From positions 1 to 30,027 of IMG/VR virus record IMGVR_UViG_2609459840_000012: DNA of 30,027 nucleotides; one strand, 5' to 3'. How positions within the stretch are numbered: position 1 is the stretch's first letter; each line of letters starts with the position of its first letter. Origin of the DNA: a virus (Duplodnaviria > Heunggongvirae > Uroviricota > Caudoviricetes). Under the pieces are notes generated by a model. It did no database searches. It was given only the letters and a program-made list of their open reading frames with translations, and was not told where the DNA came from. A program made the position numbers and the translations under genes. Positions 1-7,923 of this stretch are shown in pieces.

Positions 1-552
1 TCATGGCGTTAACTCCCGTAATACAGCGTCCTCGGCAGTCCGGCGACGGTAATAAACTGCGTGAGCAGAATGTTCAGATATTCCAAACTTTTCGCCAATT
101 TCCCGGAATGACAGACGGCGTGGGTAATCGGAATCACGCAGCGCACGTATAAGACGTACATCATCATCAGATATGCGCGTGCCGGGGCGTAACTCTCCGC
201 ACTTTGTTAATCCAGCACCAATCATTCCTGCCCGACATCTGACAGAATCTTTATTACGTCCGAGATATTCTCCCATTTGCTGGCAGGTCATTGTTCTGGC
301 ATTTTTTCGAATAAACTTATCTTCATCAGGTGTAAATCTTGGGTGTTTATATTTCAGTAACTCCGGGTATGAACTGCGCAATACACCAGTCCGGTTATAT
401 ACAGCCCAGACAGTTCTTTTTATTCTGGCAGCAATATCCTTAACCGGGGTGGATGAATAAAGCGCAATCAGCAGCGCATCTTCTTCAGGTGTCCACGGAC
501 GGACATGAGCGGGGGCGCGACCTTTTCGCCCCATGGGTTGTAAAATCATCAT
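1..552 (-). CDS. Putative DNA-binding regulator of the Mu-like early operon (183 aa); possibly Mor-like
   Basis: Complete ORF (stop at 1-3), ATG at 552 directly after the upstream stop. Two N-terminal repeats of a W/F-TPE(D)ED...IA...R motif resembling GcrA/Myb-type helix-turn-helix, and a C-terminal segment (LSFREIGEKFGIS...AVYYRR) resembling sigma region 4 / Mor-C family HTH. Function inferred from motifs only. Confidence 0.5.
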   Translation of the reverse strand: MMILQPMGRKGRAPAHVRPWTPEEDALLIALYSSTPVKDIAARIKRTVWAVYNRTGVLRSSYPELLKYKHPRFTPDEDKFIRKNARTMTCQQMGEYLGRNKDSVRCRAGMIGAGLTKCGELRPGTRISDDDVRLIRALRDSDYPRRLSFREIGEKFGISEHSAHAVYYRRRTAEDAVLRELTP

Positions 553-555
553 ACA

Positions 556-1071
556 TCACCCCCTGACTCGCTTTTCAGCAGCATAAAACTCATCAGACAG
601 TATTTCGGTCATTTTCTGTTTTGCGGGTTTTACGCCGCACTGAAGGTAAATCACATCGTCAACGCAGAACCACTTCACAGGGCCAAACAGGATTGCCGAG
701 AAATCAATACCCAGCCAGAACAACAGCGCATCGGTTCTGGCATACGTGACGGGCGAATATTCACGCCACAGACTGTTCAGTTCATCAGAGGCAACACGCA
801 GGGTTTTAGGGATACGTGATGTGCGCGGTGTGCAGCTCCAGCCATTCGACGCAGTCGGTTTTCGCCATAAGTCGCGATGAAAAGGATATTTGTCCTCCGT
901 AAAACGCAGTCCCTTAAAGCAAAATCCACTGATACCGGATACAAATACCGACCGGCACGCAACATTCAGCACGGCCTCAAGGCGTTTTGCCTCATCCTTA
1001 ACTTTCTGGCAGTCCTGCTGGTATTTTTGCCACGCAGCCAGCGCGGAAGGGTTTGATGTTTTAAAGAACAT
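556..1071 (-). CDS. Hypothetical Mu-like early-region protein (171 aa)
   Basis: ORF in tight operon arrangement; its ATG overlaps the stop of the upstream gene (TAATG). No recognisable motif. Confidence 0.5.
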   Translation of the reverse strand: MFFKTSNPSALAAWQKYQQDCQKVKDEAKRLEAVLNVACRSVFVSGISGFCFKGLRFTEDKYPFHRDLWRKPTASNGWSCTPRTSRIPKTLRVASDELNSLWREYSPVTYARTDALLFWLGIDFSAILFGPVKWFCVDDVIYLQCGVKPAKQKMTEILSDEFYAAEKRVRG

Positions 1072-1604
1072 TACGCCACCTCCGCAGATATCCCGGCAGG
1101 CGCTGCTGTCCGGTCAACAATCAGGTAGCGCAGAACATGTTCAGTGATATTCCAGCCGCTTAAACCGCAGATAATGACGCCCAGGCGTATGTCGATATAC
1201 GCCATCACAAACTGGGGCACGCCTTCTTTCATGGCCTGCTCATCAACTTCAGCCACCACATAAACGGTTTCACAGGTCAGAACGCCCTGAGCAAATTCCC
1301 ACGCCATCGACGGAATATCATGCCCCTCAATCCATGGCAGGGATTTTCTGAAGCTGCACCACTGAACATCATCAGCCGCAGATTCCTGGCTGCATTTGCG
1401 ACGAACCGGCTGCACCGGGCGGGGGCGCGGAATATCATAAAAACCGTTACATTCCGTCAGCACGCCTGCATCAACCGCATCACGCAGAAAATAAACCATG
1501 GAGGATGGCGGCATATTCATTTTTTCAGCCAGTACACCGCAGGTCAGGCGGCCATAAATACGCAGCCAGTTTTTAACCCCTTCAAGCACTTTTGCATCAA
1601 TCAT
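1071..1604 (-). CDS. Hypothetical Mu-like early-region protein (177 aa)
   Basis: ORF with GGGGA Shine-Dalgarno 8 nt upstream of ATG at 1604; follows gam in the same operon. Confidence 0.5.
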   Translation of the reverse strand: MIDAKVLEGVKNWLRIYGRLTCGVLAEKMNMPPSSMVYFLRDAVDAGVLTECNGFYDIPRPRPVQPVRRKCSQESAADDVQWCSFRKSLPWIEGHDIPSMAWEFAQGVLTCETVYVVAEVDEQAMKEGVPQFVMAYIDIRLGVIICGLSGWNITEHVLRYLIVDRTAAPAGISAEVA

Positions 1605-1749
1605 GATTTATTTCCCCACCACATTATTAATGACGATATAAACGTATTTCATATTTCTTAACCCTTATTTTCTGTTTTCAGGCGCAAGCAGTCCCCTGAC
1701 GCGAGCGCCATAATTAAAATGAAGTGATATTTAATTGATTAATGCGGTG

Positions 1750-2280
1750 TTATTTATTCAGTCCGGCGTCCTGTTCAAAAGGCTCGACATAAAAACTTTC
1801 AGCGCCTTTATTCACCTTGATACCGGCAATGCCTTTCACAGCATCCGGCTCCGCCAGGACGGCTTCCTTGTTCACTTCCTCTTTCGTGCGGATGAAACGC
1901 TCAAGCCCCATACGGCGCAGCATTTCAATCACACCTTCCACATCACGGCTGACGCTGCATGATGGCGTTCCCAGCCGCCATGACACCGTTCCGGTGGTCA
2001 GATTGGCTGTTTTGGTTTTGCCGCCGTTCGTCAGCTCATCACGGTTGGTTTTGCACCAGTCCTGAATCCCTTTAAAAAGCACTTTGATTTGCTTTTTAAG
2101 ATTTTCAATCTGCGGCGTATAACGGGCGGTGATTTCTGCCACTTCGTCATTCATCGCCGTTTCCAGGCGCAGCGCCTCTCGCTGAATATCTCCCAGGGTG
2201 CGGATATCACGGCTGACTTCTTCCCGGGTCTGCGGTGCCGCCTCGGCTGCGGCCTTTAATTTTGTAACGCGTTTAGCCAT
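1750..2280 (-). CDS. gam: Gam-like host-nuclease inhibitor (Mu Gam family, 176 aa)
   Basis: Translation carries the motif NRDELTNGGKTKTANLTTGTVSWR and overall collinearity with Mu Gam as I recall it; AAGGA Shine-Dalgarno upstream of ATG at 2280. Confidence 0.85.
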   Translation of the reverse strand: MAKRVTKLKAAAEAAPQTREEVSRDIRTLGDIQREALRLETAMNDEVAEITARYTPQIENLKKQIKVLFKGIQDWCKTNRDELTNGGKTKTANLTTGTVSWRLGTPSCSVSRDVEGVIEMLRRMGLERFIRTKEEVNKEAVLAEPDAVKGIAGIKVNKGAESFYVEPFEQDAGLNK

Positions 2281-2291
2281 TTTGTTTTTCC

Positions 2292-2585
2292 TTATTGCAG
2301 TGTGCCTGATGCTTTATGCACGCGGTGGCGTTTAATGATGGCATCCGCTCCAAAAGACTGTGCAGATGCCTGAAATTCCGCTGAGAGAAACTGAATAATT
2401 GCAGGACTGTGATACTGGAGAATACTTGCATAAACGTCACAGAGTGACGTCGGCCTGTTATCCGTATCACGTTCTGTTTTCACATCCACTCCAATCTTTT
2501 CATGCACTTCAACACAGTCATTGCCTGCCAACTTTTCGTCATGCGAAACATGATTAAATTCAAAAATAACGCGTACTTTGCTCAT
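2292..2585 (-). CDS. Small early protein (97 aa), paralog-like N-terminus MSKVRVIFEF
   Basis: ATG at 2585 with CAGGGG Shine-Dalgarno; N-terminal 11 residues nearly identical to the adjacent upstream gene. The track's longer ORF start at 2612 is rejected for lack of a ribosome-binding site. Confidence 0.5.
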   Translation of the reverse strand: MSKVRVIFEFNHVSHDEKLAGNDCVEVHEKIGVDVKTERDTDNRPTSLCDVYASILQYHSPAIIQFLSAEFQASAQSFGADAIIKRHRVHKASGTLQ

Positions 2586-2589
2586 GGAA

Positions 2590-2862
2590 TTACCCCTGTT
2601 GATTAAATTCATTACCGTTAATAACCCCGGAAGCCATGCCTCTGTCTTTCATGAATGCACTGGCTTTCATTGCCACAAACTCTGCGAAGTTTCTGCTTTC
2701 TGCCAGCATAACCACCCCAAAAATCATGGCGGGTCCATTATCTTTCTTCTTTATTCCGGTTGAACGTATATCCAGACTTACCCCTCTGCGCGTGCTGCCA
2801 TCAGAGTTTTTATAGATAACATCTTCCTTATATTCGAAAATAATGCGTACGACTTTACTCAT
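2590..2862 (-). CDS. Small early protein (90 aa), N-terminus MSKVVRIIFEY
   Basis: ATG at 2862 preceded by GAGG; shares its N-terminal motif with the 2292-2585 gene. Confidence 0.5.
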   Translation of the reverse strand: MSKVVRIIFEYKEDVIYKNSDGSTRRGVSLDIRSTGIKKKDNGPAMIFGVVMLAESRNFAEFVAMKASAFMKDRGMASGVINGNEFNQQG

Positions 2863-3140
2863 CCTCTGGTCCTCGTTCTGTTTGGATAACTGACCCGGCG
2901 TCTAACCTCACGGCAGAACCGAATCATGGCATTAAAGGCTTCTTCCTCCGTCACCGCTTCCGGTATCCCCGGAACCAGTAACTGCTCCTGTTCATCACGT
3001 CCATGACGCGCCATAACCTCAATCACATGCCGTACCGTGGCAGGCTTTCCGGCAACTATCGGCAATGCACCTTCCGGCAGGACGTAACCAAACTCAATAA
3101 GACCACTCGACCACGCCCATGCAATGAGATTTTTTTTCAC
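2859..3140 (-). CDS. Small early protein (93 aa)
   Basis: GTG start at 3140 with strong GGGAGGTG Shine-Dalgarno; start overlaps the upstream stop (TGAGGTG). Confidence 0.45.
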   Translation of the reverse strand: MKKNLIAWAWSSGLIEFGYVLPEGALPIVAGKPATVRHVIEVMARHGRDEQEQLLVPGIPEAVTEEEAFNAMIRFCREVRRRVSYPNRTRTRG

Positions 3141-3141
3141 C

Positions 3142-3396
3142 TCACACCTCCCAGTAAACCGTGCAGCCGCTGATGCGGGTGGCCTTCACACGGCGGCGCA
3201 GGCCGTTGGTCTGTATGGTGATTTCAATTTCACCGGTTCCCTGCACGTTGCCTACCGGCGGCGTGGTTTTCAGTGCAAAACGTTGTGGGTAGCGCTTACT
3301 GCGTTCCAGTACCGCACCGGCAAGTTCGGTCAGACGGCGCGCGCTGTTCAGGGAGTCGAATAAATTCATTTTGTTACCGCAGGATTGCATATTCAT
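3142..3396 (-). CDS. Small early protein (84 aa)
   Basis: ORF 3142-3408; the second ATG (3396) is preferred because GAGGTG lies 5 nt upstream, while the first ATG has no ribosome-binding site. Confidence 0.4.
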   Translation of the reverse strand: MNMQSCGNKMNLFDSLNSARRLTELAGAVLERSKRYPQRFALKTTPPVGNVQGTGEIEITIQTNGLRRRVKATRISGCTVYWEV

Positions 3397-3408
3397 ATAA
3401 CACCTCAT

Positions 3409-3630
3409 TTAGCTGATTCGTTTTGCACCGATAAAACGACAAATATTGCTGTAAGCTTCTGTCGCACCTTCACGATCAAGTCCGGCAGATATCACCATTC
3501 TGGTGCGGTCATTAAATTCAAAAAGTAAATCGCCACATTCTTTATTTTCGGCCAATGAAATCACCTTCACGTTATCGAAATTCACCAGGTGAAAGCGTCC
3601 GTAAATATCAGGAATATTAAATGCAATCAT
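3409..3630 (-). CDS. Small early protein (73 aa) in the position of Mu kil
   Basis: ATG at 3630 with AGGTG Shine-Dalgarno, immediately after the B stop; size and position match Mu kil, but no sequence similarity is claimed. Confidence 0.45.
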   Translation of the reverse strand: MIAFNIPDIYGRFHLVNFDNVKVISLAENKECGDLLFEFNDRTRMVISAGLDREGATEAYSNICRFIGAKRIS

Positions 3631-3632
3631 AA

Positions 3633-4565
3633 TCACACCTGTGAGAGTAATTCAGGGTTGGTATAAACCTCTTTAAAGGCCGCATTAATATGTTTTTCTG
3701 TCAGCGCCGCGCCTTCACCGCTGGCGGTGAGCCACGCCTGGTTAAGCGTATGTGTCAGAACGCGTAACGCTCCCGGCTTTTCAGCGATAGCCTGCATGAC
3801 GGCCAGCTCGGCCTCACCACTGATCCCCCACGCCATGGCAATGGCCAGCACATCCGCCTTTTTGGCCTTGCGAAGTTGTTTTGTACGGGCAAGACGGCTG
3901 AACAGGCGCGATAAATCATCAAAGGCGCGGCGTCCACCCTTAAACAATCCGCGCGGGTTACCAATAAGCACCATCCCGATCCCCGTGGCGTCCTGAATTG
4001 CCCGGAGTTGCTCCAGACCGTCAATACCAAGATGATCCGCCTCATCCACAATCACCAGTCCACGCGTTCCCATCAGGCGACGGCGGATGGCGCGGGATAA
4101 TGCCCCTTTGTTCGCGCGGGTGTAATCAATCCCCAGCGCATCGGCCAGCTCCAGCAGACACTCCGTGACGCTGGAGTGCGCGGGTGACAGGGTGATCATC
4201 CAGGTGTTTGGTTGCTCCTGGCAGTAATTACGGGCGGTGGCCGTTTTACCCACCCCGGGCACGCCCACTATGACGTTAATACAGCCCATCAGGCGGACCG
4301 CCTGAAACAGCGCGCGCAGCTCCTGGACTGTCTGCGTTTCCACAAACTGCGGCGGCTCGGGCAGTGCGCTTTGTTTATTCCAGTTCTCATACCAGGAACG
4401 CAGGGAAGCAGCCACAGCAGCGTTATCGCCTTTATATTTTCCCTTACGGAAAGCCGATAATGTGCCGTCGGAAATTCCCGCCTCTCTGGCGATGGCATAC
4501 TGCGTCAGTACGCCGCCATCAATAAGTTCATCAATGGTCTTGATTACATCGTTAATATCAGTCAT
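3633..4565 (-). CDS. Mu B-like transposition ATPase / target DNA activator (310 aa)
   Basis: Walker A GVPGVGKT, Walker B VIVDEADHL, N-terminal HTH, and overall collinearity with Mu B (PEPPxFVETQTV, KKADV..IA.AW, KPGALR). Confidence 0.9.
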   Translation of the reverse strand: MTDINDVIKTIDELIDGGVLTQYAIAREAGISDGTLSAFRKGKYKGDNAAVAASLRSWYENWNKQSALPEPPQFVETQTVQELRALFQAVRLMGCINVIVGVPGVGKTATARNYCQEQPNTWMITLSPAHSSVTECLLELADALGIDYTRANKGALSRAIRRRLMGTRGLVIVDEADHLGIDGLEQLRAIQDATGIGMVLIGNPRGLFKGGRRAFDDLSRLFSRLARTKQLRKAKKADVLAIAMAWGISGEAELAVMQAIAEKPGALRVLTHTLNQAWLTASGEGAALTEKHINAAFKEVYTNPELLSQV

Positions 4566-4636
4566 ATTATTAACCTCTCATTTGATACCTTGTTTAATCA
4601 AATAACCTGAGTCGCCGCTCGGGTTATTTTTTTATT

Positions 4637-6724
4637 TCAGGCCAGCGGGTCATTTTCTTTTAATTTCGCTTCCAGCAACTGCAATCCCCGCTGGAAATTA
4701 CGCTCGTATTCTTCATCAGGTTCATCGTCAGCGACCGGTTGCTGAACGGTCACCGTATTACCCACAGGGCGGTATATGTTTTCCAGCCAGGGCTCCTGCG
4801 GCTTGTGCTCCAGCACGTTGACAACCTCATCCTCGGCATCACGGATTTTTTCCTCTGCGCGTTTACGCATGCCTTTAAGGCGCTGCTGCTGTTTGTAGTA
4901 TTCCGCGCTGACAGGGAAGGCTTCGCGTTTATTGCCGTCCCATACCGCCTCGCAAATCACGCTGCCATCCGGGCGGCGCACGGTAATTCGTTCGGCATCA
5001 TGAATGTCATAGCTGATAAGTACCTTACGGCCATGCTCGTCACGCAGCTCGGGCGCGTAGTAAATATTATTCAGCCAGCGTATTTCACAGCGTCTTACAG
5101 GGCGCTCCACCATCGGCCGGAACATATCCCGCAGTTCAACATCGGACAGCCATTCAATTTCCGTGTCCTCTTCCGCCAGGCGTTTTTTTCTGAACTCCGC
5201 CGGGCTGTAATGTTTACCGTTCGGCTTCATGGGTAATTCATCGTGCGGCCGGTTGTTGTACCACTCAACACCGTCACGAATGGCATCAATCAGTTCAGAC
5301 CAGGACGGTAAATCACGCATCGCTGACTGCTGCCGGGCGTTCAGCCGTTTGCCCTGTTGCAGGGCACTGAATGCCGAGCGTAAATCGCGGTTGGTTTTAC
5401 GTAACGTCTCGCGATCTGCTCCTTTCCCGAAATAGGTGCGGTATTTACGGGCTATGCGCATCGGTAATGTGCGGTTAAGCCGTTCGATAATGCCCCGTCC
5501 CTGCGGATTACCGGCAATCCCTGTCGGGTGATTAATCCCCAGTCGTGGCAGTATCCCCACAATCTCCTTATCCAGGACGTCGGCGGTTTCCCCGGAGCCA
5601 TTATCCGAGTAATACAGAAACGGTTTGCCATGATGGCGAATACCGTGCTGTATGGCACCGGCTACGGCGAAAACATTTTCAGCCAGGTCAAGGCTCCAGC
5701 CCACCACAAAGCGCGTGCCACCGTCGATAACAAAGGTCACTTCCGGTGCGAATGGCCGCCCGTGAACCGGGTGCGCGCATTTCAGCTTCATGCCGTGACC
5801 GTCACCAATCCAGACATAATTCACCGGCATTTTTGACCAGTCGCGGCGCGTGAATCCCTCAAGCTGGCGGTATTCACTGCCGGTAACCCGTCCTTTTTGT
5901 TTCACCACTTCCGGCAGTTTCTTCATTGCGCGGCGAATGGTGTCATAAGACGGCATGATATCGAGCATATAAGGCTCATCAGCGTGCCGGTGCTGCCATT
6001 CGGCAACAAAATCCTCGTAAGCCTCGGTCATTGGTCGGCCGTTTGACTGGCGATACTGCGCCAGAAATTCGGGCAACCAGTTAATATCTTCGGCTTTTAT
6101 TTCCTGGCGTTTACCTGGTGCCAGCAAAAGCAGGCGTTCAGCAGCGTTCTGTGCCTTATTAAAGGCCGCAATCCAGCGTTTCAGCGTGATTTCACTCAAC
6201 ACGCGACTGTTTCCCTTTCTGGCGTTCGCTATCTCAACCATTGCCACAATGCGCTCATCCAGTTGCGAGTGTGACAGGCGGTCAACGATGAACCGGATAG
6301 CTTTAGCGCAGCTGAAACCGGGTTGTTGCGTGAATTTCAGCACCTCACTGACGATCGCAATGCGTGCGTCTGCCACCTGGCGCTGGTTTTCAGTCAGGGC
6401 ATTGAGGCGTTCGACCATCAGTTGTGGTGATCCGCGATATGCCTCCACCGCATCAACCACGGCAGACGAGCGTCTGGCCTTTGTCACCACCGGAGCCGGT
6501 GATTCATCGGCTTTTTGCGTCATCAGTTGCAGGGCATAACGTTCGCGTAATGCCTGCTGTGTCACTTCAGGTAAACAGTCAATGCTGTATTCAAAACCTT
6601 TAGCGCCTTTCTTGCGGCGTCTGCTGGTTTCGCTGGTTGCATACTTCCTGATTGAATAGCGAACGCCTTGCTCCGTTCCCGGCATCCCCGGTAATCCAAC
6701 CAGTTCTTTGACTGAAGCAAACAT
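4637..6724 (-). CDS. Mu A-like DDE transposase (695 aa)
   Basis: Size, position between ner and B, N-terminal DNA-binding region, a central region with acidic residues consistent with a DDE catalytic core, and an acidic C-terminus; gene order ner-A-B is Mu-typical. Confidence 0.9.
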   Translation of the reverse strand: MFASVKELVGLPGMPGTEQGVRYSIRKYATSETSRRRKKGAKGFEYSIDCLPEVTQQALRERYALQLMTQKADESPAPVVTKARRSSAVVDAVEAYRGSPQLMVERLNALTENQRQVADARIAIVSEVLKFTQQPGFSCAKAIRFIVDRLSHSQLDERIVAMVEIANARKGNSRVLSEITLKRWIAAFNKAQNAAERLLLLAPGKRQEIKAEDINWLPEFLAQYRQSNGRPMTEAYEDFVAEWQHRHADEPYMLDIMPSYDTIRRAMKKLPEVVKQKGRVTGSEYRQLEGFTRRDWSKMPVNYVWIGDGHGMKLKCAHPVHGRPFAPEVTFVIDGGTRFVVGWSLDLAENVFAVAGAIQHGIRHHGKPFLYYSDNGSGETADVLDKEIVGILPRLGINHPTGIAGNPQGRGIIERLNRTLPMRIARKYRTYFGKGADRETLRKTNRDLRSAFSALQQGKRLNARQQSAMRDLPSWSELIDAIRDGVEWYNNRPHDELPMKPNGKHYSPAEFRKKRLAEEDTEIEWLSDVELRDMFRPMVERPVRRCEIRWLNNIYYAPELRDEHGRKVLISYDIHDAERITVRRPDGSVICEAVWDGNKREAFPVSAEYYKQQQRLKGMRKRAEEKIRDAEDEVVNVLEHKPQEPWLENIYRPVGNTVTVQQPVADDEPDEEYERNFQRGLQLLEAKLKENDPLA

Positions 6725-6726
6725 AA

Positions 6727-6957
6727 TTACGCGACCTTACGAATGTAGCGGCTGGGCCAAATCTCCTCGGGCGGCACCCCCAGGCATTCCGCGATAATCC
6801 CCTCATACTTGGGAACATGGCGGTATACCGCGTTGTACAGATTGTTCTGACCCACGCCAGCTTTACGGGCCAGCGCCCTCATGCTTCCTTCTCTGGCTCT
6901 GACTTCCCCCAAAATTCTTTGAGGATGCCAATCAGGCTTAACTTCATTTCTCGCCAT
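6727..6957 (-). CDS. ner: Ner-like DNA-binding regulator (76 aa)
   Basis: Translation MARNEVKPDWH...EIWPSRY matches the Mu Ner / Nlp family signature (DWH near the N-terminus, IWPSRY near the C-terminus). Stop lies 2 nt from the A start. Confidence 0.85.
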   Translation of the reverse strand: MARNEVKPDWHPQRILGEVRAREGSMRALARKAGVGQNNLYNAVYRHVPKYEGIIAECLGVPPEEIWPSRYIRKVA

Positions 6958-7141
6958 GATTCATCTATCCTAAAAAGTTACGAAATTTGATAACTAAACT
7001 TAGTTATCAAGTTTGATATAAGTATTGATCCACTTCTGCTTCATGTAAAGCAAAAAAACATCTTTCTTTTGTCTATTGTGGATCAATGGTTGCTGACAAC
7101 ACTAAAAGTTAATAATTTCAAATTGATAGGAAGAAAAGAAA
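6958..7141. promoter_or_regulatory. Divergent c / ner control region with operator-like inverted repeats
   Basis: 24-bp near-perfect palindrome TTGATAACTAA-AC-TTAGTTATCAA at 6987-7010; 10-bp inverted repeat ATTGATCCAC (7024-7033) / GTGGATCAAT (7078-7087); recurring TTGATA motifs. Candidate c promoter TTGCTG-17-TAATTT at 7090-7118. Confidence 0.5.
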
Positions 7142-7687
7142 ATGAACAAGCAAACAACAACATCTCTTTCTTTTCCTGGTGGTAGAAAAGAAAGCATTGC
7201 TGAGCGTCTGAAAAGGCTGATTGGCTCCCGCAGCGTCAGAGCTGCAGCAAGAGATTGGGGGCTTTCATTTTCAACACTAAACAATTATCTGTCTCGTGGC
7301 ACTGAGCCATCCTTAAGTGTCGCCCTTCAGATTGCGTCTATCGAAGGAGTAAGTGTTGAGTGGCTATGTGGATTCAGTGATGCATCACAAGTGAATCGGT
7401 GTGAGATCAAGGAAAATCAAGATGAAAGCAAGAAGATAATTATGACGATTATCAGCGCACTTGATGAAAAAGACTTAGAGCAGCTATCGAAAAATTTGGT
7501 TCTGAATGGAGCCAAGTACTTAGCTCGGTTGTTAGAGCCTGAAAATCAAGATCTAATCCGCTTAGAAGGAAGGAAAAGAATAGCTGCATTACAGCTTGAA
7601 GGTATGTCTGACGAACGCGTCAGAGAGATTTTGGAAGAAACTGAGAGAAGTCGCAAATCTAACGCGGTAGAACCAAAAGCGGGTTAA
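7142..7687 (+). CDS. Transposable-phage repressor c-like protein (181 aa)
   Basis: N-terminal CI-type HTH (SIAERLKRL...AAARDWGLSFSTLNNYL); C-terminal segment (LEGMSDERVREIL) resembles the Mu c C-terminal region; divergent from ner as in Mu; AGGAAG Shine-Dalgarno. Confidence 0.8.
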   Translation: MNKQTTTSLSFPGGRKESIAERLKRLIGSRSVRAAARDWGLSFSTLNNYLSRGTEPSLSVALQIASIEGVSVEWLCGFSDASQVNRCEIKENQDESKKIIMTIISALDEKDLEQLSKNLVLNGAKYLARLLEPENQDLIRLEGRKRIAALQLEGMSDERVREILEETERSRKSNAVEPKAG

Positions 7688-7761
7688 TAGCATTAGCCCG
7701 CATTTTGCACTATATCGAGTATTTCGCATTGTTTGGAACGCCTTAAAAGACTAAAACCACA

Positions 7762-7773
7762 GTATCAAATGAG
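7762..7773 (+). repeat. Mu A-type end-binding-site-like repeat (L3 position)
   Basis: GTATCAAATGAG; the reverse complement CTCATTTGATAC resembles the Mu att consensus core TTCAYTNNAARYRCGAAA. Confidence 0.5.
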
Positions 7774-7811
7774 TTGCCGATTTTATAATAAATGACTAAT
7801 TATTGCACAAT

Positions 7812-7824
7812 CGGTATCAAATAG
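7812..7824 (+). repeat. Mu A-type end-binding-site-like repeat (L2 position)
   Basis: CGGTATCAAATAG; same core as the copies at 7762 and 7907. Confidence 0.5.
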
Positions 7825-7906
7825 ACCTTATCCGCACATCTAGCCATCACCTGTTTTATTTCAGTATCTTACAGGTGATTTCACCTCCTTTCACTAAAAC
7901 CCTTGT

Positions 7907-7923
7907 CGGTATCAAATGATTCA
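7907..7923 (+). repeat. Terminal Mu A-type binding-site-like repeat (L1 position) with candidate terminus CA at 7922-7923
   Basis: CGGTATCAAATGATTCA; read inward from the end this is 5'-TGAAT-CATTTGATACCG, compared with Mu 5'-TGTAT-TGATTCACTTGAAGTACG. Confidence 0.5.

Follow-up and report, generated by a model that had tools for sequence, protein, structure and literature searches.

The stretch of viral DNA considered here comprises positions 1 to 30,027 of the IMG/VR virus record IMGVR_UViG_2609459840_000012 and is called the window in the following. Our analysis indicates, with a probability that we put at roughly 0.9, that its positions 7759-7933 constitute the left end (attL) of a Mu-type, Sp18-like transposable prophage that interrupts the small-terminase gene, terS, of a lambdoid prophage, and that three direct repeats located in this segment serve as binding sites for the transposase of the element. 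This assignment relies on the boundary of the element, the arrangement of the repeats at both of its ends, 4-bp target duplications at independent insertions, and the gene content, each of which was directly observed.

Boundary, termini and target duplication

The boundary of the element was traced by a megablast search with positions 6900-9000 of the window. Ninety-four phage records (94; Shiga toxin [Stx] phages and lambdoid phages) and more than 1,000 Escherichia coli genomes match only from position 7934 rightward, into terS and terL, and in other E. coli genomes the match, at 99.5-100% identity, ends at position 7933 and unrelated genes follow. An intact lambdoid relative reads GCTTGC directly followed by GTTTATAGCCC, and it is at GTTTATAGCCC that the window joins the lambdoid sequence. 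Hence, the last base of the element is 7933 (...CCTGGTTATA; ...TTCACCTGGTTATA), and lambdoid DNA begins at 7934. The intact terS gene (187 codons) occupies positions 1358-1921 of the lambdoid relative L002, which the window matches from 1501 onward. The features at the junction are the following:

7930..7933, minus strand: terminal TATA of the left end of the prophage, read inward as 5'-TATAACCAGGTGAATCATTTGATACCGA
7934..7937, no strand: GTTT, predicted from five other insertions to be one copy of a 4-bp target-site duplication
7934..8354, plus strand: 3' part of the lambdoid terS gene, which is cut 143 nucleotides (nt) after its start codon

Along its entire 7,933 nt, the Mu-like part of the window shares 98.1-98.6% identity with full-length prophages present in other E. 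coli genomes, and its transposase is 99.9% identical to that of one of them, L001. The right end was read in three such near-identical full-length copies, which are inserted into bcsA (L001), into a P2 capsid gene (L004) and between citD and citE (L005). All three start with TATAACCAGGTGAATCATTTGATACCGA and finish with ...TCGGTATCAAAAAAATCGCCGCGCTATA, and in each of them the TATAACC end adjoins unrelated host DNA. Across other genomes the same end is found beside bcsA, the P2 capsid gene, the citD-citE junction, a Stx phage and an HNH gene, so that it has unrelated neighbours at six places, the window included. As side observations, L001 carries an ISKpn26 insertion (10935-11915), and both L004 (32.8 kb) and L005 (23.5 kb) have suffered large deletions of head and tail genes; the two ends are intact in all three copies.

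A search of 5,426 complete E. coli genomes found no instance of the junction 7933/7934 within a lambdoid terS gene, so that the insertion into this particular terS is a private transposition event and presumably a recent one. Its far junction, expected some 33-39 kb to the left of the window, is predicted to read ...GAGGTGCTTGCGTTT abutting TATAGCGCGGCGATTTTTTTGATACC (or TATAGCGCGGCGATTTTTTTGATACCGATTTGC), and would thus consist of the 5' part of terS, the GTTT copy and the right end of the element. The lambdoid prophage, with its split terS gene, is probably defective in packaging.

Five independent insertions carry 4-bp target duplications, namely GACG, CGCC, CATG, AGAG and CTCC. When the flanks of the citD-citE insertion are joined with a single CATG, they reproduce the empty site at 300 of 300 bases, as it occurs in more than 5,000 E. 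coli genomes. A 4-bp duplication is also annotated in GenBank by the depositors of LC727895, a Stx1a phage that contains the Mu-like insert Mu_JNE122137 (L006). A duplication of 5 bp, in which the outermost T would be counted as part of the target, was considered as well; it works for L001 and L004 and fails for L005, L006, L003/L016 and the target in the window.

In every E. coli copy whose boundary is set by a duplication, the right end reads ...TATA-3'. At the left end, the window type starts with 5'-TATA and the type represented by L006 and L003 with 5'-TGTA, so that the elements run from TATAACC to GCGCTATA in the former and from TGTAACC to GCGCTATA in the latter. Klebsiella phage Kp4866-3 has the same sequence at its right end (TATAGCGCG). 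According to a survey from 2021, TG-CA ends are conserved in all Mu-like and B3-like phages and prophages described up to then; this survey cites only integration duplications of 5 bp (Mu) and 6 bp (B3) and calls the TA-TA ends of Leptospira prophages unusual (PMC8705779). The transposable prophages of Leptospira resemble the elements described here in the TA terminal dinucleotides of a Mu/B3-like prophage, but they possess a transposase of the B3/Tn552 family and generate 6-bp duplications, whereas the Sp18-type family has a MuA-type transposase and generates duplications of 4 bp (PMC8705779). We found no paper on the 4-bp duplication, the TA ends or the fine anatomy of the sites in Sp18-type phages. 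Judged from the copies compared, the 4-bp duplication and the TA ends are a real, albeit modest, peculiarity of this family.

Repeats at both ends and their relation to the Mu sites

The core GTATCAAA is found on the plus strand at 7762, 7814 and 7909, exactly where the sequence-only reading of this DNA, made before our analysis, had located three direct repeats. The extended 12-mer TCGGTATCAAAT is the same at 7811 and 7906 in every base and agrees in 10 of 12 bases at 7759, which gives spacings of 52 and 95 bp. Counted from the terminus at 7933, and named in analogy to Mu, the sites are:

7906..7918, minus strand: L1, terminal predicted transposase-binding repeat CATTTGATACCGA, nt 16-28 from the terminus
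7811..7823, minus strand: L2 repeat TATTTGATACCGA, nt 111-123, invariant in the three-way attL alignment
7759..7771, minus strand: L3 repeat CATTTGATACTGT, nt 163-175, innermost conserved element of attL

The three-way alignment compares the attL of the window with those of two copies of a sublineage that carries a different repressor module. Similarity extends through nt 175 and then collapses, so that the limit of attL conservation coincides with the inner edge of L3.

That inverted copies of the motif should exist at the opposite end had been set beforehand as a test of the sequence-only reading, and three copies, inverted relative to those of the left end, are indeed present at the right ends of the near-identical full-length copies L001, L004 and L005. 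Positions of the sites, given as the start of TTGATAC counted from each terminus, are as follows:

Window type (L001): left 19, 114, 166; right 19, 41, 76
Mu_JNE122137 (L006): left 19, 114, 166; right 19, 41, 76
Klebsiella phage Kp4866-3: left 19, 89, 131; right 19, 41, 75

The terminal TTGATAC consequently starts at nt 19 at both ends of all three elements. No TTGATAC in the reverse orientation occurs within 333 bp of either end, and elsewhere in the 38-kb element there are five copies, compared with about 4.6 expected from the sequence length alone.

Several further occurrences were noted. A fourth site copy, GTATCAAATGAG, lies on the minus strand at 4577-4588 (core at 4581), between A and B and about 10 nt ahead of the start codon of B, and its 12 nt are the same as in L3. 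It is present in the Mu-like phage of LC727895 and is missing from L001 and L004, where a different intergenic sequence separates A from B; we treat it as dispensable or a chance occurrence. A conserved internal TTTGATACCGA near the centre of the genome was likewise discarded, as it is situated inside the major head gene and internal 7-mer counts are at chance level. In L001, a terminator-like hairpin (40804-40845; GCGCCGAT...ATCGGCG and then TTTTT) directly downstream of a mom-like gene holds R3 in its loop.

In our reading of these ends, the three CATTTGATACYGA repeats L1, L2 and L3 are bound by the MuA-type transposase, the product of 4637-6724, and R1-R3, their inverted copies at the far end outside the window, complete a set of six sites. 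Through these, transposase subunits would pair both ends into a transpososome, which would cut at the terminal ...TA-3' (7933) and, together with the MuB-type ATPase, would join the ends to the target with a 4-bp stagger. The binding of the repeats by the transposase as well as the cutting and joining chemistry are extrapolated here from homology with Mu.

Phage Mu carries three MuA sites at each end with differing spacings (PMC3145075), and its L1-L2-L3 sites were described by Craigie, Mizuuchi and Mizuuchi in 1984 (as summarised in PMC3145075). The attL of the window resembles that of Mu in that the repressor-adjacent end bears three directly repeated sites, with three further sites on the right, in that the terminal site is found at a fixed distance from the terminus, and in that a long spacer separates L1 from L2. 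R1 and R2 are spaced by 22 bp in both. A spacing like that of Mu L1/L2/L3 had been claimed before; the L1-L3 span (147 bp in the window versus 145 bp in Mu) bears this out. Both the A and B proteins carry Mu-specific domains. The differences are equally clear. Anchored on CGAAA, the Mu sites are found at 22, 127 and 167 on the left and at 22 and 44, plus an inverted R3, on the right; the window-type site is about 4-5 bp further from the terminus, the L1-L2 and L2-L3 distances are 95 and 52 bp as against 105 and 40 in Mu, and R3 is direct in the window type and inverted in Mu. The window type combines TA termini with a 4-bp duplication, whereas Mu combines CA with 5 bp. Moreover, the repressor has only a weak match to HTH_3 (XRE-type) and is apparently not of the Mu c type, and the sequence of the spacer is unrelated to that of Mu.

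The relation of the repeat to the Mu A binding consensus, which had also been proposed from the sequence, is plausible, albeit unproven. The 5' half TCATTTGA of the family consensus (T)CATTTGATACYGA fits TCAYTNNA of Mu, but the core TTTGATACYGA of the window sites differs from ...AARYRCGAAA of Mu: when compared with the complete MuA consensus TGNTTCAYTNNAARYRCGAAAR, the TCAYTNNA half matches, the AARYR part is mismatched and the CGA half lies one base closer.

Relatives of the element provide a further view of the sites. Mu_JNE122137 has a transposase that is 93.7% identical, a small terminase (TerS) that is 97.4% identical and an attL that is about 90% identical over nt 1-175; site positions, inverted repeat and right end are the same, and it differs from the window element in its left terminus (TGTAACC versus TATAACC) and its repressor module. 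It is via Mu_JNE122137, whose link to Sp18 of strain Sakai comes from the literature (PMC10132054), that we place the element of the window, by sequence similarity, among the Sp18-type Mu-like prophages of E. coli. Sp18-like Mu-like phages are common in Shiga toxin-producing E. coli (STEC), often inserted in other prophages (PMC10132054; PMC2669165). Kp4866-3, likewise a Mu-like myovirus, keeps the site architecture with a transposase that is 57% identical. In vB_YpM_5, one of the Mu-like myoviruses of Yersinia (PMC10434027), the transposase is 82% identical, the motif is the same, and the right-end sites are spaced by 22 and 35 bp. The latter two phages thus share with the window type TTTGATAC sites at both ends and right-end spacings of 22 and 34-35 bp. 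In the "circular" record of vB_YpM_5 (MT374853), the right and left ends are joined via about 80 bp of non-phage sequence (L010, 1070-1410).

A transposase search of genome contigs, which was used for motif covariation only, returned two loci. In one of them (L012, 1740-1890; Shigella flexneri CP182556), as well as in the other (L013), a transposase that is 74% identical is accompanied by three copies of TTCAAGATAA, spaced by 71 and 52 bp, in place of TTTGATAC. As a different motif occupies the matching positions next to this enzyme, the site co-varies with the transposase, which points to co-evolution of the two in these loci.

Several points weigh against our interpretation of attL and its repeats. 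The right end of the copy present in the window lies beyond it and was read only in near-identical copies. The termini are TA in place of the CA that is regarded as essential when Mu-type elements are cleaved. Identity between the transposase and MuA is no more than 23%, and the presumed site of the enzyme fits the Mu consensus in the 5' half only, with the CGA half displaced as outlined above. The assignment of proteins to DNA sites rests on homology and architecture. Finally, TTGATA-like motifs occur in the intergenic region between the repressor gene and the ner-like gene as well, so that a second protein recognising the core may exist.

The L1-L2 spacer and competing explanations

Between L1 and L2 lies a segment that stands out by its conservation:

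7845..7903, no strand: invariant L1-L2 spacer block, nt 31-89 (59 nt), which holds the inverted repeat; candidate packaging-recognition (pac) or architectural region

It contains a perfect 9-bp inverted repeat (ATCACCTGT at 7846-7854 and ACAGGTGAT at 7871-7879, corresponding to nt 55-88 from the terminus), whose arms had been recognised in the sequence-only reading and are confirmed here. This repeat folds much more stably than shuffled sequence does (z = -4.6). A function as a terminator was dismissed, for no T-run follows the stem on either strand. Between the window type and the L006/L003 type, nt 31-89 show not a single substitution, whereas the 18 nt that follow (nt 90-107) show seven differences. 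The core of the inverted-repeat arm, CACCTG, has no copy in the right-end sequences that were read.

Mu, vB_YpM_5, Kp4866-3 and the Shigella relative share another spacer block, CCGGGAGGA..TGGAT..CGGGAT; vB_YpM_5 and Kp4866-3 thus differ from the window type in that their L1-L2 spacers are Mu-like and devoid of the 9-bp inverted repeat. We take this shared block to coincide with the pac site of Mu, which is reportedly situated at about nt 32-54. vB_YpM_5 is a natural mosaic: it combines a transposase and sites of the window type with a TerS that is 99% identical to Mu gp27 (that of the window type is 57% identical to gp27), and its spacer is Mu-like, as are its L1-L2 and L2-L3 spacings of 104 and 42 bp. 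Since the type of the spacer follows the small terminase and not the transposase, we tentatively read the invariant spacer with its inverted repeat as the pac region that the small terminase of this lineage recognises, a proposal to which we give less than even odds. What weighs against it is its basis in one natural mosaic, two sublineages and the reported position of the Mu pac site. A more comprehensive view, to which we give slightly less than even odds, holds that the elements of the Sp18-like MuA-type lineage of E. coli function with TA-3' on the right and TA or TG on the left and cut their target with a stagger of 4 bp, where Mu uses 5 and B3 uses 6, and that its attL spacer is an exchangeable pac module that travels with the small terminase.

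The strongest competitor of a pac role is a purely architectural one, in which 7845-7903 would merely be a bendable or HU-bound segment that sets the L1-L2 geometry and takes no part in packaging. There is precedent for this in Mu, where HU binds and bends the spacer (PMC3145075), and the L1-L2 distances vary among the relatives (95, 70, 71, 104 and 105 bp) in a manner reminiscent of a flexible linker. Yet the invariance of 59 nt right beside a variable stretch is not expected for a non-specific linker, nor is a linker expected to track the type of the small terminase in a mosaic phage. We consider this explanation somewhat less likely than a pac role. The two roles are not exclusive, as HU-type bending could accompany a pac function. 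A bend site for a host factor, the role that had initially been assigned to the inverted repeat, finds no support, as no match to the IHF (integration host factor) consensus WATCAANNNNTTR exists anywhere in the window, and a pac role is the more likely one in the light of the comparative data. The direct repeats themselves were also considered as IHF sites, given that their core TATCAA resembles the IHF core, and were rejected, as most copies lack the TTR part.

Alternatively, the three repeats might be operator-type sites for the repressor or the Ner-like protein, which would silence or insulate the end. A regulator that recognises the core may exist, as the repressor gene and the ner-like gene are separated by a region with a cluster of TTGATA/TTGATC motifs and a palindrome that includes TTTGATAA. 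However, the two ends carry the repeats in opposite orientation, with terminal copies equidistant from the termini and an R1-R2 spacing of 22 bp as in Mu. In addition, motif and transposase have changed in step in L012, and the motif is unchanged in L003 and L006 despite their different repressor region. We regard an operator function in place of transposase binding as very improbable.

Even less can be said for the model in which the end is located at 7923, with a TG...CA terminus, a Mu-like terminal pentamer, sites about 1, 99 and 150 bp away from it and a bend site for a host factor, as the sequence-only reading had envisaged; the factor would be IHF or HU. That reading was right in claiming the end of a transposable phage, and a CA does occur at 7922-7923; likewise, HU binds the L1-L2 spacer of Mu (PMC3145075). 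But the 10 bp from 7924 to 7933 accompany the element at five or more further insertion sites, and neither the intact lambdoid target nor the empty citD-citE site contains them. Junction mapping therefore moves the terminus 10 bp further out, to 7933: the CA is internal to the element, TGAAT is not the terminal pentamer, and the distances of the sites had been underestimated by 10 bp. With the terminus at 7933 and not at 7923, the TG...CA rule and the 5-bp flank fall as well, the ends being TA...TA or TG...TA and the duplication measuring 4 bp at all five insertions examined. As to the bend site, the window is devoid of an IHF consensus, and HU binding, which is not sequence-specific, would not explain a perfectly conserved inverted repeat. 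Collectively, these findings render this model scarcely tenable.

A chance cluster of a short core in AT-rich intergenic DNA (the region has 40% GC) can be set aside with near certainty, as four copies occur in the 30-kb window where 0.72 are expected, three of them fall within 156 bp in one orientation, the 12-mer is identical at L1 and L2, and the sites are kept in relatives down to 57% transposase identity.

Gene content and implications

Positions 1-7933 of the window represent part of a Mu-like prophage in reversed orientation with B, A, ner-like and repressor genes. The repressor gene runs on the plus strand toward the end, in the manner of Mu c, and the divergent ner-like, A and B genes are on the minus strand, a layout of the open reading frames that is the reverse of the left end of Mu. 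The individual features are:

3633..4565, minus strand: B protein, 310 amino acids (aa), MuB-type AAA+ target-capture ATPase; Pfam Phage-MuB_C (E = 8e-25) and AAA_22
4637..6724, minus strand: transposase A, 695 aa, MuA-type DDE enzyme; Pfam HTH_Tnp_Mu_1 and Mu-transpos_C
6727..6957, minus strand: ner-like gene, 76 aa; Pfam HTH_35, E = 1e-21
6958..7141, no strand: repressor/ner-like intergenic region; candidate operators and transposition enhancer
7142..7687, plus strand: repressor gene, 181 aa; weak match to HTH_3, with 21.8 bits below the cut-off of 23

Transposase A is 23% identical to MuA over its full length, and its residues D308 and D374 align with D269 and D336 of MuA. Matches to retroviral integrase cores extend over residues 362-424, a stretch that includes D374 and E414, and the solved N-terminal domain of MuA (1tns) is matched by residues 2-62. 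A close protein similarity to the canonical Mu phages (Mu, D108 and SfMu) is not seen, as the values for A relative to MuA and for TerS relative to gp27 illustrate.

A RefSeq protein identical to the 181-aa repressor is labelled "transcriptional regulator", and a terminator-like hairpin can be read from the sequence at 7679-7701, by the repressor gene. Pfam reported no HTH_Tnp_Mu_1 match for the repressor (7142-7687), and the transposase has this domain. If the repressor is not of the Mu c type, then the sharing of operator and enhancer between repressor and transposase known from Mu may not apply. The operator and enhancer role of 6958-7141 is suggested by the layout of Mu and is that of a candidate. 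Within 6976-7128, between the repressor and ner-like genes, we noted a palindrome with 15-nt arms (AAATTTGATAACTAA/TTAGTTATCAAGTTT), an inverted repeat of 10 bp (ATTGATCCAC/GTGGATCAAT) and additional instances of TTGATA or TTGATC; the core of the motif in this region resembles that of the att sites, TTTGATAC. To the right of the repeats, GC rises from 0.40 to about 0.58, and the DNA from 7934 onward is a lambdoid, Stx-phage-like morphogenesis module.

The attL of the window is a known kind of feature. The GenBank record LC727895 already annotates the boundaries and the 4-bp duplication of its Mu-like phage, and the basic picture of how transposable phages function is unchanged. Our analysis resolves the ends of Sp18-type Mu-like prophages to the base and supplies the positions and the consensus of their sites; these prophages are common in E. 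coli and STEC, and their ends are often missed by prophage finders. If the 4-bp duplication and the TA ends are indeed undescribed, they would reveal that a transpososome geometry of a variant kind has so far gone unrecognised in a host that is well studied. A relative of MuA that operates with TA ends and a 4-bp stagger would offer a natural variant for asking what sets the choice of the cleavage site and the spacing of the target, and the ends of the Sp18-type prophage could serve as an orthogonal mini-Mu tool.

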